Assembly: GCA_028708605.1 (NCBI GenBank)
Contig: JAQVYS010000004.1
Location: 1 to 63,405, forward strand
Direction: 5' to 3'
DNA from: Bacillota bacterium
GTDB taxonomy: Bacteria; Bacillota; DTU065
DNA: 63,405 bases
Part shown: positions 15,368-41,745 of the stretch, piece after piece
Layout: each line of letters begins with the position of its first letter
How positions within the stretch are numbered: the stretch's first letter is position 1
Made by a program: the position numbers and the translations under genes
The notes under the pieces: generated by a model
Told to the model about the DNA's origin: nothing
Seen by the model: only the letters and a program-made list of their open reading frames with translations
Databases searched by the model: none

Positions 15368-15727
15368 TGGTGGAGGCGGTGGGTGTCGAACCCACGTCCG
15401 AAAAGACGACCATAGTCCCGTCTACGAGCGTAGTCTGATTACTTAGTTTTCGCTTGAAAGAACGCCATCAGACAGGCTTCTTTCTCACTACACTTCTATA
15501 GTCTTTCGTTTTCGCCTAGAAGTAATGGCTAAACGGCAACCCGCTAATTTGATGCCCAAAAGATAGCCGCAGGTTTACTATCTAAGGACAGCTACTTTTA
15601 ATTAAGCAGCGTAAGCTAAATTATCGTTTGCGTTTATTATACGCTTCCGCCTTTTTATCGAGGTTTGCGGAGAACTCGGCTCGCTGTGACTAACATCATA
15701 ACTCCCCGTCGAAGCCAAATCGCCCCC
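15368..15727 (-). ncRNA. ssrA: tmRNA (SsrA)
   Basis: Minus strand starts GGGGGCGATTTGGCTTCGACGGGG and ends GGACGTGGGTTCGACACCCACCGCCTCCACCA. The acceptor stem GGGGGCG/CGCCTCC has G3:U. Tag ORF GCA AAC GAT AAT TTA GCT TAC GCT GCT TAA encodes ANDNLAYAA* (15631..15602). Confidence 0.95.
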
Positions 15728-33382: not shown

Positions 33383-34232
33383 CGTCTGTTTCTTTTAGTA
33401 ATGACTTTATATCCGCTATCTTGAAGTAGTTTACCCACCCCATAATATAACGTCTGAGTCTCAGTATTCTCTCTTTATTGCTCATTCCGTTACTCCTAAA
33501 AGTAAGGTCCTTGATTTTGCTTCTCATTTTAGCAGTTGATTTAGGATGTATCCTAACTCGTGTTGCACCTTTTCTCTTGAGCAATTGCTTGTTGCACTAC
33601 TCTGTCTACCACTGTAGGTATTCCTAACTTCCTCTTTTTCCCGTTTTCTTTGGGTATCTCTGTCCGTCTAACAGGATTAGGTTTCTACTTACCGTTCAAA
33701 ATACTTTCTTTAATACTTTTAAGATTCTTTTCGAGATACTTTCTGAGTTCATCGACTCCCATTCCGTCTACGCCTGGTGCTCCTTTGTTGGATTTCACCT
33801 TATGGAAGGCTTGATTGAAATTCTGGATGTCTATGACTTTCTCAAGTAGGTTCTCGGTTAGCCCCTCCTCGATTAACTCGAGTACTATGGCACCTGCTGA
33901 CTTCTCATGGCAAATCTTGTTTCAACCGTAGCTCGAAATATATCTCCTCGCGTCCATGAGACCTCCCATGGTAAGACGATTCACTTTCACCCCATGTACC
34001 CACATCATCTACATTCGTATGTCCGTGTAGTTAATTGGACTTCGTTTTGTTTAGCAAACTCATCCCATATCCACTGCCTAATGATGTTCGTGTTCCTTGG
34101 GTCAGGGTTTTACCTCCAACTTCCTTCAGATTCCACCTCGCAATAATCACCCTTGCTCTTGGCTAATGGTTGGTAACTACAAACCCCCATAGTGGACTTT
34201 CACCACCTAGTTAATCGACATGCATGGCGCAC
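33383..34232 (-). mobile_element. group II intron, 5' segment (5' GUGCGCC end, domains I-IV, decayed RT ORF)
   Basis: Minus strand begins GTGCGCCATGCATG at 34232. The RT ORF reads ...NFNQAFHKVKSNKGAPGVDGM...ILNGK*KPNPVRRTEIPKENGKKRKLGIPTVVDRVVQQAIAQ, then jumps directly to ...RVRIHPKSTAKMRSKIKDLTFRSNG...GWVNYFKIADIKSLLKETDE. So there is an in-frame TAG and no YADD palm region. Confidence 0.8.
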
Positions 34233-37675: not shown

Positions 37676-37876
37676 ATGCCCACATATGTCTACAAATGTC
37701 CTAAGTGCGGTAAATTCGATTTTTACCAAAATATTAATGATAAACCTCTTGTAAATTGTCCGAAGTGTGATTCTGAAGTTAAAAAATTGATCTCTGGTGG
37801 AGCAGGTGTTATTTATAAAACAGATGGTTTTTATATCACAGACAGCAAAAAAAACAAAGACACTGCAGCATCATAA
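37676..37876 (+). CDS. FmdB-family zinc-ribbon protein
   Basis: 66 aa: YVYKCPKCGKFD...CPKCDS (CxxC...CxxC). Confidence 0.8.
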   Translation: MPTYVYKCPKCGKFDFYQNINDKPLVNCPKCDSEVKKLISGGAGVIYKTDGFYITDSKKNKDTAAS

Positions 37877-37904
37877 AAAGAGGAGTTGATCAACTCCTCT
37901 TTTT
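37876..37904. terminator. bidirectional terminator between convergent genes
   Basis: AAAAGAGGAGTTG-at-CAACTCCTCTTTTT. Confidence 0.8.
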
Positions 37905-37915
37905 AGCGTTTATAT

Positions 37916-38779
37916 TTAAAATAGTGATAACTGTTTAGACTGAACTTCAGTCCAATACGGTGCTTCGCACCTCATCCCTTGTTCTCTAGCAAGGGTCTCT
38001 ATCATTTCGTTTATTGGCTGCCAATAAGAATCTGGCACAATGCCTTCTCTTCCATACAAAAACCGATAAGGTTGGACTAGCTCCCTGTAATTGGTTTCCA
38101 AAAATGCCAAAAATGCCCTTTCGTGTTTGCTGGCAATACTTAGTGGCGCTTTTAAGATATAACTTGCACCTGATTCTTTTGCAGCTATAATTATCTGTTT
38201 AATACCTTTTTGGTCATCCCCTATAAATGGCAATATCGGGTTAAGAGCAACCCCACAGGTTACGCCTTTTGAGGCAAGGTTATGTAGGGCATTGAAACGC
38301 TTTATCGGAGAAGGTACATTTGGTTCTAGCTGCTTTGCTAGACTAATAAAAGGCGAGCAAAACTCGAACGTAACTGAAGCCATCGTTTTACTGGCTATCT
38401 CTTGTAAGATTTTCTTGTCTCTTAATACTAGAGTACTGCGTGTTTTGATATGTACTGGAAAGCCCTGAACAGCTAAGACCTGCAACAGATCGTGAGTTAT
38501 CAAATAATGCTTTTCCAAGGGCATGTAAGGATCACATTTATAACCGATACCAACTGTCTCTCGAGATTTTTTAACTAATTGCCTTGAAAGCACCTCAGCT
38601 GCATTCAAGCGTACTTGCACAGTCTGAGTTTCTAACTCAATAGGGTTAGCACAATAGGTACACTGCTGAGAGCAGCCAAGATATGGATCAGCAACATATC
38701 TGTAACCAAACACCGGGTCTCTATTGCGGTAAATATCTAGGATGGATTTAACTTTTTGTTCTTTTGTAGCAATACTCAT
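37916..38779 (-). CDS. SPL-family (COG1533, 'DNA repair photolyase'-like) radical SAM protein
   Basis: 287 aa with the CxxxCxxC cluster in YLGCSQQCTYCAN. Size and layout fit SplB-like proteins. Confidence 0.65.
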   Translation of the reverse strand: MSIATKEQKVKSILDIYRNRDPVFGYRYVADPYLGCSQQCTYCANPIELETQTVQVRLNAAEVLSRQLVKKSRETVGIGYKCDPYMPLEKHYLITHDLLQVLAVQGFPVHIKTRSTLVLRDKKILQEIASKTMASVTFEFCSPFISLAKQLEPNVPSPIKRFNALHNLASKGVTCGVALNPILPFIGDDQKGIKQIIIAAKESGASYILKAPLSIASKHERAFLAFLETNYRELVQPYRFLYGREGIVPDSYWQPINEMIETLAREQGMRCEAPYWTEVQSKQLSLF

Positions 38780-38892
38780 TAAAAAATCCTCCTGTCTACC
38801 GCAAAAAATAACTTTTTAATCCGTCTCTGTAAAGTATATCTTAACATAGTCTAGATAAATATTAAAGAAACGACCTATAAAACTGCTCCGTG

Positions 38893-38921
38893 AAAAAAAG
38901 CTGCAGGCATACCTGCAGCTT
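38893..38921 (-). terminator. strong intrinsic terminator closing the riboswitch leader
   Basis: Minus strand reads AGCTGCAGG-tatg-CCTGCAGCT plus TTTTTT, 114 nt upstream of the radical SAM ATG. Confidence 0.85.
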
Positions 38922-38947
38922 AAATCCGAATCCTCGTGATTATGATA

Positions 38948-39048
38948 AGCCTACTCCACCCCCCTGTTTCTCCCCCGTAAGATAGAGCGGAGAAACCTCA
39001 TGGTCTGATCTCTTATAGTTTCATGCCGGGTTGGCAGACCCGTAGGCT
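38948..39048 (-). promoter_or_regulatory. unassigned ~100-nt structured leader domain (possible second aptamer)
   Basis: Closing helix AGCCTAC/GTAGGCT (39048-39042 / 38954-38948). Internal helices are GGTCTG/CAGACC (39040-35 / 39007-02) and GTTTCTCC/GGAGAAAC (38996-89 / 38973-66). A G6 run lies at 38964-59. No plausible ORF. Confidence 0.45.
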
Positions 39049-39084
39049 ATAAGTTGGGTAGATGAACAGACTTAGAGTGCCGCT

Positions 39085-39154
39085 CCCTCATAGTCAGATA
39101 GTTAACGGCTATCTGGTAGATACTCTCATGCCATATTCCTGAGATTATACGAGG
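39085..39154 (-). promoter_or_regulatory. purine riboswitch aptamer, guanine class
   Basis: Minus strand reads CCTCGTATAATCTCAGGAATATGGCATGAGAGTATCTACCAGATAGCCGTTAACTATCTGACTATGAGG. P1 is CCTCGTA/TATGAGG. The conserved UAUAAU, AUAUGG, UCUACC and CCGUUAA elements are present. J3/1 is GACUAUG (C at the specificity position, hence guanine-type). Confidence 0.9.
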
Positions 39155-39178
39155 AAATCTCATAACCACTTTACGTTT

Positions 39179-39207
39179 ATTCTACCCTTAAATATCATTA
39201 CTGTCAA
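39179..39207 (-). promoter_or_regulatory. sigma70-type promoter for the riboswitch transcript
   Basis: Minus strand reads TTGACA (39207-39202), a 17-nt spacer, then TAGAAT (39184-39179). It overlaps the last codons and stop of the upstream ttcA-like gene. Confidence 0.65.
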
Positions 39208-39976
39208 TATTACCTAAATACTTTAGATAGAACTGATGCATCTCTAGCTTGTTTTTTTGTTTAGGCCATAGTTCAACTTTTTTTCCTTCGCGCATTGCGG
39301 ACAAAAGATGCGTATAAACATTAGGGTTATCTTTAACAAGATCTTTTAAAAGATTTTTCACCTGTTCTCTTTGAGTTTTGCCTGAATATGGACAAGGATT
39401 TTTTACTGGTTCAGCTTCAGCGTATGTTAAACCACCTTTTACCTCTGCCTCTGTAAAATAAACTAGTGGCCTAATTACTCTGATAGCACTTTTGTCTAAG
39501 TAGGTTGTGGGCATAAAAGTTTTTAACTGACCAGAATAAAAGAGGCTAAGCAAAAATGTCTCAAGCGCATCATCTTGGTGATGAGCAAAAGCAAGAACAT
39601 TTGCTTCTTCTCGTTTTAATATTCTGATCAAAGCCCCTTTTCTATAAAAAGCGCAACTACTACAGGGATTATTAGGCGATCTTTCTTTTACAACCTCAGC
39701 GATATTTGTTCTTTCTAAATAAAACGGTACAGATAGCTTCTTGCAATAATTCCTTAAATAATCTTCTCTAATCTGACCATATCCTAAGTCAATTGTTGCA
39801 GCAGCAAGTTCAAAAGAAAAGGGCGAGTTATTTTGCATTACCCGTAAGGCGTACAATAAAAACAGACTGTCTTTGCCACCTGAAAGACCAACTACTACTT
39901 TATCATTTTCTTTTAACATTTCAAACTCCATTGCTGCTCGCCAAAGTTTGCGTAGATATAACTTCGGAAGTCTCAT
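39188..39976 (-). CDS. PP-loop ATPase, TtcA-like tRNA 2-thiocytidine biosynthesis protein
   Basis: Start at ATG 39976 (RBS AGAGGTG). VGLSGGKDS PP-loop plus the CSSCAFYRKG cysteine motif. Confidence 0.75.
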   Translation of the reverse strand: MRLPKLYLRKLWRAAMEFEMLKENDKVVVGLSGGKDSLFLLYALRVMQNNSPFSFELAAATIDLGYGQIREDYLRNYCKKLSVPFYLERTNIAEVVKERSPNNPCSSCAFYRKGALIRILKREEANVLAFAHHQDDALETFLLSLFYSGQLKTFMPTTYLDKSAIRVIRPLVYFTEAEVKGGLTYAEAEPVKNPCPYSGKTQREQVKNLLKDLVKDNPNVYTHLLSAMREGKKVELWPKQKNKLEMHQFYLKYLGNIDSNDI

Positions 39977-40126
39977 TATTGCACCTCTACCATAGTTAGG
40001 ATAAAGATATTTTATCTCAAATACTAGCAAAAGCAACCCAAAAAATTAGTGGCACCTCTAATAGTAGGTACCACTATACACATATTAAATATTGAAATTT
40101 AAGATTAAGCTCTTTTCAGTTATAGA

Positions 40127-40288
40127 TTACTCTTCTTTCTCAAAGTCTTCTTTACTTGCTCCGCAGAGGGGACATACCCAATCATCTGGAAGATCCTCGA
40201 ATTTTACTCCAGGCTCAATACCACCTTCTGGATCGCCAACTGCTGGATCATAAACCCATCCACATAAAGTGCAAACCCACTTATCCAT
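40127..40288 (-). CDS. rubredoxin (53 aa; below the ORF-track cutoff)
   Basis: GGAGG plus 7 nt, then [53 protein letters not shown]. Two CxxCG knuckles. Confidence 0.9.
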
Positions 40289-40461: not shown

Positions 40462-41745
40462 TTACAGTCTAGAAACAAACCGTTCAAATTCTTTTTGTTT
40501 TCTAGTGAGTTCTAAGTTAGAATCTCGAGCTGCTTCTAATAGAACTGTCTTTGGATCTGCATCTTGCATTACTACCTTAGAAAAAGCAAAGCTAAGGTAT
40601 CGATAGGTCTGGTATCCACCTACGACAGGCATAGGTCCAAGTGACTCTGAGAGCGCACCATCAATAACTGTTCTAACATTTTCTGGGAAAATTTCGGAAT
40701 TTGCTGTGCCCCTTGTACCAAAGACTAGATACCATTCTTCAGGTGAATCATAGATCCTAGTCTGGAACTCTTTTTGCACACGATCTGAAGCAATCCATTT
40801 GACGAACTCCCAAGATGCCTTAACCTTCTCTTCATTATTGTTGTTTGGCATCGCAAAAGCAAATGAACCAAGAGGAACCGTGCGATCTAGATTACCATCT
40901 TTATCGATAGTTCCAGGTGCTTGAGTTACTGTCCACTTGCCCTGTAGTTGCGGTTGCGTTCTGGTGATCTGAGCATATATCCAGTTCAAGGTTACCATAT
41001 AAGGAGTGTCTCCACTCATAAACGCCTGGACTTCAGGTAGTTCTAGTGGCAAGCGTTGCTCAGTATAAAAAGAGGTGAAGTTGAGAAAAGCATCTAAAGC
41101 TTCAGGTGAATCCAGATTAGAACTTAAGCCGTCTGCAGTAAAGATATCTGAGCCTCTTTGGTAAATAAATGGAAAGAATGATCGTACATGACCATCTGTA
41201 TTATTACCTATGGTAGAAAGCCATGGATCTTTACCTTGTGCTTGGATTTTAGGTATAATCGCTCTAAATTCATCCCAAGTATCAGGAGGACTGATACCAA
41301 GATCATTAAATATGTCAATCCGATAAAAAGCTTGCGTCCAACCTAATTCAAAAGGTATACCATAAACATGGTCCTTAAAAGTTAAAGCTCTCATCGCCCC
41401 TGGATAGATGTCTTTAATAGCATCATCATAGTCTGAGAATTGACTTATATCAGTAATTGCTCCGCGAATTGCCATATCGATAACCTGCGCTGCACCTAAG
41501 GTCATTACATCAGGAGCATCACCAGTGGCCAAAGCCAACAGTGCTTTTTGAAAGAAAGCTCCGTCAACCATATACGGCTGGTAATTTACTTCAATCCCAG
41601 TTGCTGGAGTGAAGTCATTTTCAATAAGGTCCTGCAAAATAGCTCCCATTACACCTCCATAAGTTATCCATGCAGTAATTTCAACTGCACTGCCAATTAC
41701 ACTTAGTAACAGAATTATTGCTAACAATAAAGCAGTTTTACGCAA
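40462..41745 (-). CDS. ABC transporter solute-binding protein, family 1, orphan (SBP-D)
   Basis: 427 aa with signal peptide LLLSVIGSA/VE. C-terminal ELTRKQKEFERFVSRL motif. No permease nearby. Confidence 0.8.
   Translation of the reverse strand: MRKTALLLAIILLLSVIGSAVEITAWITYGGVMGAILQDLIENDFTPATGIEVNYQPYMVDGAFFQKALLALATGDAPDVMTLGAAQVIDMAIRGAITDISQFSDYDDAIKDIYPGAMRALTFKDHVYGIPFELGWTQAFYRIDIFNDLGISPPDTWDEFRAIIPKIQAQGKDPWLSTIGNNTDGHVRSFFPFIYQRGSDIFTADGLSSNLDSPEALDAFLNFTSFYTEQRLPLELPEVQAFMSGDTPYMVTLNWIYAQITRTQPQLQGKWTVTQAPGTIDKDGNLDRTVPLGSFAFAMPNNNNEEKVKASWEFVKWIASDRVQKEFQTRIYDSPEEWYLVFGTRGTANSEIFPENVRTVIDGALSESLGPMPVVGGYQTYRYLSFAFSKVVMQDADPKTVLLEAARDSNLELTRKQKEFERFVSRL

Follow-up and report, generated by a model that had tools for sequence, protein, structure and literature searches.

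A guanine-class aptamer embedded in a larger conserved RNA of uncultured Bacillota

The guanine riboswitch is the textbook case of a compact aptamer whose terminator abuts it directly. Riboswitch-containing small RNAs, such as SreA/SreB of Listeria and EutX/Rli55 of Enterococcus and Listeria, carry S-adenosylmethionine or cobalamin aptamers and have defined trans partners. A third arrangement is the tandem riboswitch for guanine and phosphoribosyl pyrophosphate (PRPP), ykkC subtype 2b, which has been validated (Sherlock et al. 2018, PMC5912903) and is represented by 192 examples (PMC9481103). In this tandem, the guanine aptamer is followed by a second domain and by one terminator, with none in between (PMC9481103; PMC5912903), and the PRPP tail is complementary to the 3' strand of the guanine P1 stem, the two folds being mutually exclusive (PMC5912903; PMC9481103). 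Here we describe a locus on contig JAQVYS010000004.1 of a Bacillota bacterium (assembly GCA_028708605.1), analysed over a window of 63,405 nucleotides (nt), that resembles each of these systems in part. At this locus a canonical guanine aptamer is built into a larger, conserved and covariation-backed RNA upstream of genes without a purine role.

The locus encodes one composite RNA of ~280 nt (39170-38893), in which the aptamer and a second structured domain (domain 2) are enclosed by a long-range helix (P0) and followed by a linker and an intrinsic terminator (Table 1). The structure was derived from RNAalifold on seven leaders, explicit pair counts and per-sequence folding, all of which agree; the 3' half of domain 2 was aligned by per-sequence folding and not by MAFFT columns. 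The whole leader is more stable than shuffled controls (z = -3.4), and 95.9% of the cells of the full structure are paired in the seven-leader alignment. Double-sided pair changes number 14, compared with 5.8 +/- 1.7 in column shuffles (0/500 reach 14) and with 1-6 such pairs in slid-partner controls; they come from only ~6 independent lineages, so that the covariation rests on few events. Specifically, P0 forms in 8/8 sequences at -10 to -15.5 kcal/mol, and between lineages it shows double-sided changes at four positions, e.g. GUGGUUAU/AUAAUCAC, GUAGUUAU/AUAACUAC and GUGACUAC/GUAGUCGC. Domain 2 alone adopts a common fold in five lineages (z = -2.5 to -4.0), and its stem D1 and hairpins H3 and H4 are found in all eight sequences. 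Covariation within the domain is seen in H3, of which the inner stem and loop CGGG[WCUGCCAA]CCCG are invariant. L022, a near-identical metagenome copy of the window RNA, differs from it at two positions, both in D1, and one of these changes turns a U-G pair into a C-G pair. The stretch between aptamer and terminator is a conserved structured domain rather than a spacer. An earlier reading of the same DNA, hereafter the original prediction, had offered a composite leader as one of two explanations for the distant terminator, and this explanation is supported by the conserved domain and by the covarying closing helix that ties it to the aptamer.

Table 1. Features of the composite RNA and its flanking genes (window coordinates; nt, nucleotides; aa, amino acids; bp, base pairs).
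Feature	Position	Strand	Description
ttcA-like PP-loop gene	39188-40036	(-)	database orthologue 262 aa, pointing to a likely start near 39976
Sigma-70-type promoter	39207-39179	(-)	-35 TTGACA 39207-39202, 17-nt spacer, -10 TAGAAT 39184-39179
P0 5' strand	39169-39160	(-)	GUGGUUAUGA; extreme 5' end of transcript
Guanine-class purine aptamer, P1 to P1	39155-39085	(-)	RF00167; match including flanks 39071-39172
Domain 2, three-way junction	39075-38945	(-)	~130 nt; D1, H3, H4
D1 stem of domain 2	39075-39055 with 38965-38945	(-)	
Hairpin H3 of domain 2	39053-39012	(-)	holds invariant CUGCCAACCCGG (39037-39026)
Unpaired junction of domain 2	39007-39003	(-)	CAGAC, conserved
Hairpin H4 of domain 2	38996-38966	(-)	5' strand GUUUCUCC..CUC, complementary to aptamer P1 3' strand
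P0 3' strand	38945-38936	(-)	UCAUAAUCAC; just past domain 2
Purine-rich linker	38935-38922	(-)	GAGGAUUCGGAUUU; GAGGA resembles P1 3' strand and can pair with P1 5' strand 39155-39151
Intrinsic terminator	38921-38893	(-)	AAGCUGCAGG / CCUGCAGCUU; 10-bp stem, 4-nt loop, U7
Extended -10 promoter-like element	38846-38838	(-)	TGTTAAGAT; 59 nt ahead of radical SAM start codon
Radical SAM protein gene	37916-38779	(-)	287 aa, CxxxCxxC motif; next same-strand gene past the RNA

The aptamer is a full member of its family. A search with cmscan against Rfam 15 gave an RF00167 match of 81.3 bits (gathering score 37, E = 5e-13) over the full model with zero indels, and the aptamers of all homologues score 77-84 bits. 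P1, formed by 39155-39148 with 39092-39085, leads into a P1-P2-P3 three-way junction. The joining segments J1/2 (UAUAAU), J2/3 (GU.UCUACC) and J3/1 (GACU) all match the family consensus, with columns that are invariant in seven lineages, and compensatory changes are found in P2 and P3. The specificity position is a C (GACUAUG), which by sequence places the aptamer in the guanine class; we infer that it binds guanine. The aptamer call of the original prediction, including the C at the specificity position, is borne out by this intact core, and the cmscan search that had been proposed to check it is positive.

The RNA is bounded by a promoter and a terminator, both of which are conserved. The promoter sits within the last codons of the ttcA-like gene (stop codon 39190-39188), where it had been predicted, and matches the consensus at 11/12 positions. 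It is the top-scoring site of the region, in which promoter-like sites overall occur about as often as expected by chance (6 found vs 5.3 expected). TTGACA, a spacing of exactly 17 nt and TAnAAT are retained in 7/7 lineages, and the distance from the -10 element to the first nucleotide of P0 is constant. Because the overlapping C-terminal tails of TtcA vary in length and sequence among the seven lineages while the promoter stays fixed, the constraint acts on the nucleotide level and not on coding. Transcription would probably start at ~39170-39172, 1-2 nt ahead of P0. No terminator belonging to ttcA itself was found between ttcA and the RNA, and ttcA transcripts would therefore have to continue into the RNA. 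At the other end, the terminator stem (38921-38898) contains six G-C pairs among its 10 bp, and its U7 tract reaches 38893. A terminator is present in every homologue, and the stem core CUGCAGG/CCUGCAG is invariant in all lineages. The aptamer end at 39085 and the terminator start at 38921 are separated by 163 nt, in agreement with the predicted ~165 nt, and no terminator abutting P1 was found in this stretch.

A coding role of the leader was considered and rejected. An open reading frame of 40 aa in the window (39047-39169) and one of 74 aa in L001 both begin at a GUG in P0 and are of unequal length, and the alignment indels are not multiples of three. Within domain 2, GUCUG (39071-39067) of the D1 5' strand and the junction CAGAC (39007-39003) are both invariant and mutually complementary. 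An alternative or co-transcriptional helix between the two is conceivable, as is a pseudoknot that involves CUACC/GGUGG of D1; neither side varies, which places this pairing beyond the reach of covariation.

The composite RNA is rare and occurs in a single narrow clade of uncultured Bacillota sampled in digester and fermentation metagenomes. When genomes were scanned with the radical SAM protein, one relative was recovered, the Bacillota metagenome-assembled genome L001. Its ttcA-like gene is followed at once by the promoter and the aptamer, then by ~130 nt of conserved sequence that leads up to the same terminator. Further lineages were gathered through TtcA homologues and contig look-ups, giving seven distinct lineages with TtcA proteins 67-100% identical to that of the window. 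The TtcA proteins of the other lineages are 67-73% identical to the window's, yet the whole RNA unit is conserved. No aptamer was found within the 208 nt available past ttcA in L011 (TtcA 63% identical), nor near TtcA homologues of 50% identity or less. A metagenome scan with an invariant 20-mer of domain 2 returned 15 stretches, 5 of them real and all from three lineages already known. One copy of domain 2 per locus was found by nhmmer, which gave no extra copies elsewhere in the window or in the fetched loci. In the loci found, domain 2 is always accompanied by the guanine aptamer, and the RNA unit is syntenic with the upstream ttcA gene and not with any single downstream gene. No published description of the composite was found in the literature searched.

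Next to the RNA in the window lies the radical SAM gene, as the original prediction stated; its assignment to the spore photoproduct lyase (SPL) type did not hold. No spore photoproduct lyase model of NCBIfam matched the protein at E <= 1e-3. Its best NCBIfam matches were Rv2578c (151.8 bits, cut-off 430) and PA0069 (121.7 bits, cut-off 360), and Pfam gave a sub-threshold Radical_SAM match only. Judged by family models, the protein appears to be related to the Rv2578c and PA0069 families and not to be SPL-type. Homologues share at least 63% identity within the clade and at most 37% outside it.

The gene order of the relatives separates the radical SAM gene from the RNA. Specifically, 5/7 RNA-bearing lineages have a gene of ~430 aa for a sugar-type, CUT1-like solute-binding protein (SBP2) past the RNA, and a terminator hairpin separates this gene from the radical SAM gene further on. 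SBP2 is missing from the window and L002, where the radical SAM gene is directly next on the same strand. The hairpin between SBP2 and the radical SAM gene shows compensatory changes and a U-rich tail in alignment A3. It was missed by a simple terminator scanner because of its long or bulged loop, and is called a terminator here from its covarying stem and U-rich tail in A3. An extended -10-like element, TGnTA(A/G)NAT (TGnTAAGAT / TAATAT / TAGAAT), lies 55-60 nt before the radical SAM start codon in all seven orthologues (A3) and, read directly, past the SBP2 terminator in the outgroup L029. The window copy falls inside 38780-38892, the interval in which a separate promoter would, by the account given with the original prediction, speak against control of the gene by the riboswitch. 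The sequence past the RNA terminator in the window and L002 corresponds in alignment to the region that separates SBP2 from the radical SAM gene in the other lineages. Outgroup L029, which comes from the same sample as L011, has SBP2, the terminator, the promoter-like element and the radical SAM gene in that order, and no aptamer was seen there. Since L029 keeps the SBP2-containing order, that order is ancestral and the window lineage lost SBP2. The radical SAM gene is thus probably a separate transcription unit with its own promoter; in the window, with no further gene in between, read-through from the riboswitch promoter could still add to its expression. As the adjacency stems from lineage-specific gene loss, the radical SAM family should not get a purine link from this locus, contrary to one of the two suggestions of the original prediction.

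A homologue of 35% identity (L031, Chloroflexi contig Ga0164311_10000494, 1-3870) has no riboswitch. It lies directly downstream of genes for a UvrA-like ABC ATPase, a DinB_2 protein and two DUF3795 proteins, a context that hints at a possible DNA-damage role for this radical SAM group.

No sigma-70-like promoter was found between the RNA terminator and the SBP2 start codon in L001 or L009, and this fits a dependence of SBP2 on read-through. The spacer between the RNA terminator and SBP2 contains a conserved block, AAUGAG(G)AAGGAAU(U/A)(U/A)AU ... UGUCUAA (L001 ~1465-1510; also L004, L006, L008 and L009; alignment A4), followed by a run of G5-7 ahead of the SBP2 ribosome-binding site. The block is not a sigma-70 match and may serve as a binding site, either of an alternative sigma factor or of a regulator. 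A small open reading frame in this spacer was rejected as a candidate; its frame is not conserved, being interrupted by an indel of 1 nt.

Compared with the canonical guanine riboswitch (RF00167; B. subtilis xpt-pbuX type), the window element shares a full, high-scoring aptamer with the loop-loop consensus, an upstream promoter and a downstream intrinsic terminator. Unlike in the canonical case, the terminator lies 163 nt off, past a domain of 130 nt and with P0 enclosing both; the only candidate antiterminator draws on the P0 and P1 5' strands and not on the P1 3' strand; and the downstream genes, a CUT1-type solute-binding protein and an Rv2578c-like radical SAM enzyme, fall outside purine transport, salvage and biosynthesis. 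The aptamer belongs to RF00167, but the element as a whole departs from the class in both expression platform and gene associations and is therefore not a canonical guanine riboswitch.

The guanine/PRPP tandem is similar in layout. In both cases the second domain lies directly 3' of the aptamer, no terminator stands between them, and a single terminator is shared; additionally, the P1 3' strand has a complement in the H4 5' strand, a point of resemblance only and not of homology. The present RNA differs in lacking the ykkC hallmarks P1/P1a/P1b, P2 and P3, in having a terminator that does not overlap the domain but is set off from it by the P0 3' strand and a linker (14-30 nt between P0 3' strand and terminator across lineages), and in preceding genes other than those for de novo purine biosynthesis or codA. 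The ykkC motifs CUAGGGUUCC, GGUCCGAG, ACACC and GGGAUAAAAGCCC, taken from published alignment rows, are absent in 8/8 sequences except for one isolated ACACC in L002, and three homologues gave no RF00442 match at E <= 10. A PRPP/ykkC identity of domain 2 was rejected on these grounds. Nor did domain 2 match any other family of Rfam 15 even at E <= 10 in the window and two other divergent homologues; permissive scans of three divergent homologues gave just junk matches on the terminator hairpin. The RNA would resemble SreA/SreB and EutX/Rli55 in having an aptamer at the 5' end of a predicted transcript bounded by promoter and terminator motifs, which may act beyond the adjacent gene. It differs from them in its guanine aptamer, in the extra domain between aptamer and terminator, in the enclosure by P0, and in having no known partner.

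How the RNA acts can be outlined from its predicted pairing alternatives. As the most likely reading, to which we give a little less than an even chance, we propose a guanine-responsive transcription attenuator (an OFF switch) with an unusual long-range platform. In the guanine-bound state, P1 and P0 would together sequester the antiterminator strand by holding the 5'-terminal ~25 nt, and the terminator would form. Without guanine, the linker and the terminator 5' half would instead be engaged by the 5' strands of P0 and P1, and this antiterminator would permit read-through. Domain 2 would lie inside the switching loop; as its H4 could swap strands with P1, the domain would probably tune the decision or contribute a second input. 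The ancestral target would be the downstream SBP2; after its loss in the window lineage, read-through would now enter the radical SAM gene, alongside transcription from that gene's own putative promoter.

Thermodynamic calculations are consistent with this attenuator in part of the lineages. In the window, the antiterminator duplex of nt 1-21 with the linker and the terminator 5' strand has an energy of -12.7 kcal/mol. Resemblance of the linker to the P1 3' strand is also frequent among the lineages. In prefix ensembles, the probability that the terminator 5' strand is paired with nt 1-30 changes from 0.61 to 0.01 in the window, from 0.66 to 0.08 in L001 and from 0.38 to 0.03 in L009 when the state with P1 penalised is replaced by that with the aptamer favoured. 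A ligand-dependent antiterminator is thereby predicted in the window, L022, L001 and L009, which amounts to only three of six lineages. The H4 5' strand (GGUUUCUCC.CUC) pairs with the P1 3' strand at -10.6 to -13.4 kcal/mol in the window, L002, L001 and L004, and in these four the native pairing (P1 and H4) and the P1/H4-swapped pairing are nearly isoenergetic. Two other antiterminator candidates were rejected: the H3 5' strand (CUUGCAGU) with the terminator 5' strand, which reaches -11 to -13 kcal/mol only in L004, L006 and L009 and is weak in the window, and a pairing through GCAGC just past P1, which is confined to the window and L002.

Several results weigh against the attenuator. In L004 the candidate antiterminator is weak, L002, L006 and L008 lack it, and its duplex energy in the window is no better than that of shuffled controls (z = -1.4). 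No partner of the terminator 5' strand is conserved in position, the best partner varying by lineage, and the terminator itself is strong with an invariant stem. A helix of the P0 type, joining the 5' end to the segment before the terminator, is equally to be expected of a stable stand-alone RNA, and no purine connection is known for SBP2 or for the radical SAM protein. A stand-alone or dual-function guanine-sensing small RNA is a reading that we regard as somewhat unlikely. The constitutively terminated ~280-nt transcript would then be the product, protected or closed by P0; guanine would change the exposure of C/U-rich or G-rich segments of domain 2, which would act in trans or bind a protein, and the same sequence would double as the 3' untranslated region of the ttcA operon. 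The sequence motifs of an own conserved promoter and a strong invariant terminator agree with this, as do the P0 helix between the extreme 5' end and the segment just before the terminator, the lack of a consistently conserved antiterminator and the lack of a terminator for ttcA. The unit also follows ttcA and not one downstream gene, and it stays intact where SBP2 is missing. Against it, no trans target is known, and complements of the H3 loop are not enriched in the window, where they occur 3 times vs 1.4 expected, one of them being the element itself. Moreover, the absence of a recognisable SBP2 promoter in L001 and L009 argues for read-through, and canonical guanine aptamers are overwhelmingly cis-regulators. 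A two-input tandem riboswitch, in which domain 2 would be a new aptamer that binds a second ligand and has P0 and the terminator in common with the guanine aptamer, after the manner of the guanine/PRPP IMPLY gate, appears unlikely. The gross layout is that of the guanine/PRPP tandem, the three-way junction carries invariant unpaired nucleotides (H3 loop CUGCCAA and junction CAGAC), and the 5' strand of H4 is a complement of the P1 3' strand, as is the PRPP tail in the known tandem. However, domain 2 has no match among the known aptamer classes and is without the ykkC/PRPP hallmarks; its confinement to one narrow clade, always with the guanine aptamer, gives no independent sign of sensing, and the associated genes give no clue to a ligand. 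Spanning both of these alternatives is the broader proposal, possible though doubtful, that domain 2 is an undescribed sensor or effector, either a new aptamer in a two-input gate built through P0 or the active part of a small RNA that senses guanine and works in trans; both would couple guanine status to functions outside purine metabolism, for example a sugar-type binding protein or a radical SAM enzyme. Should domain 2 sense a second signal, the locus would represent a new tandem logic gate with a new orphan aptamer; an RNA that acts alone would be a small RNA responsive to guanine.

Two further explanations were considered. That the element is a guanine riboswitch dedicated to the radical SAM gene, with a purine-linked function of that family, was the other explanation offered in the original prediction, and we now consider it improbable. 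It draws on the window and L002, where nothing stands between the RNA and the radical SAM gene; but SBP2 with its terminator and the promoter-like element intervene in 5/7 lineages, L029 has the same order without an aptamer, the promoter-like element is retained in the window as well, and the distant Chloroflexi homologue is without a riboswitch. A decaying, functionless leader relic left by the deletion of SBP2 would also fit the absence of that gene from the window and L002 lineages, and is very improbable indeed. The RNAs of these two lineages have diverged and yet remain paired through compensatory changes in P0, P2, P3, H3 and H4, with promoter and terminator kept, and the L022 change from U-G to C-G in D1 likewise preserves pairing. 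Because compensatory changes persist between these two SBP2-less lineages, the RNA is still under selection in both.

The neighbourhood of the RNA varies in further respects. In the relatives, a flavodiiron (flavorubredoxin-like) gene lies between the rubredoxin gene and ttcA (L004 2536-4795; also L006, L008 and L009). The window (rubredoxin 40127-40288, ttcA 39188-40036) and L002 are without it, their lineage having lost or never gained it, as with SBP2. The rubredoxin-ttcA-RNA cluster of the relatives lies between the genes of two CUT1-type solute-binding proteins, paralogues of 33% identity (window 40462-41745 on the minus strand; L001 1545-2864). Both are without an adjacent permease or ATPase gene and are thus orphan binding proteins. 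On the other side, between the convergent radical SAM and Zn-ribbon (FmdB-type) genes, a 14-bp hairpin with flanking A and T runs (window 37874-37905) is probably a bidirectional terminator.

Two other RNA features were found on the minus strand of the window. A full-length transfer-messenger RNA gene lies at 15368-15727 (RF00023, 182.9 bits). Additionally, matches to group II intron domains at 33861-34147, namely RF02001 (D1-D4-3, 121 bits, 33976-34147) and RF01998 (D1-D4-1, 38 bits, 33861-33922), indicate a group II intron ~5 kb from the composite RNA.

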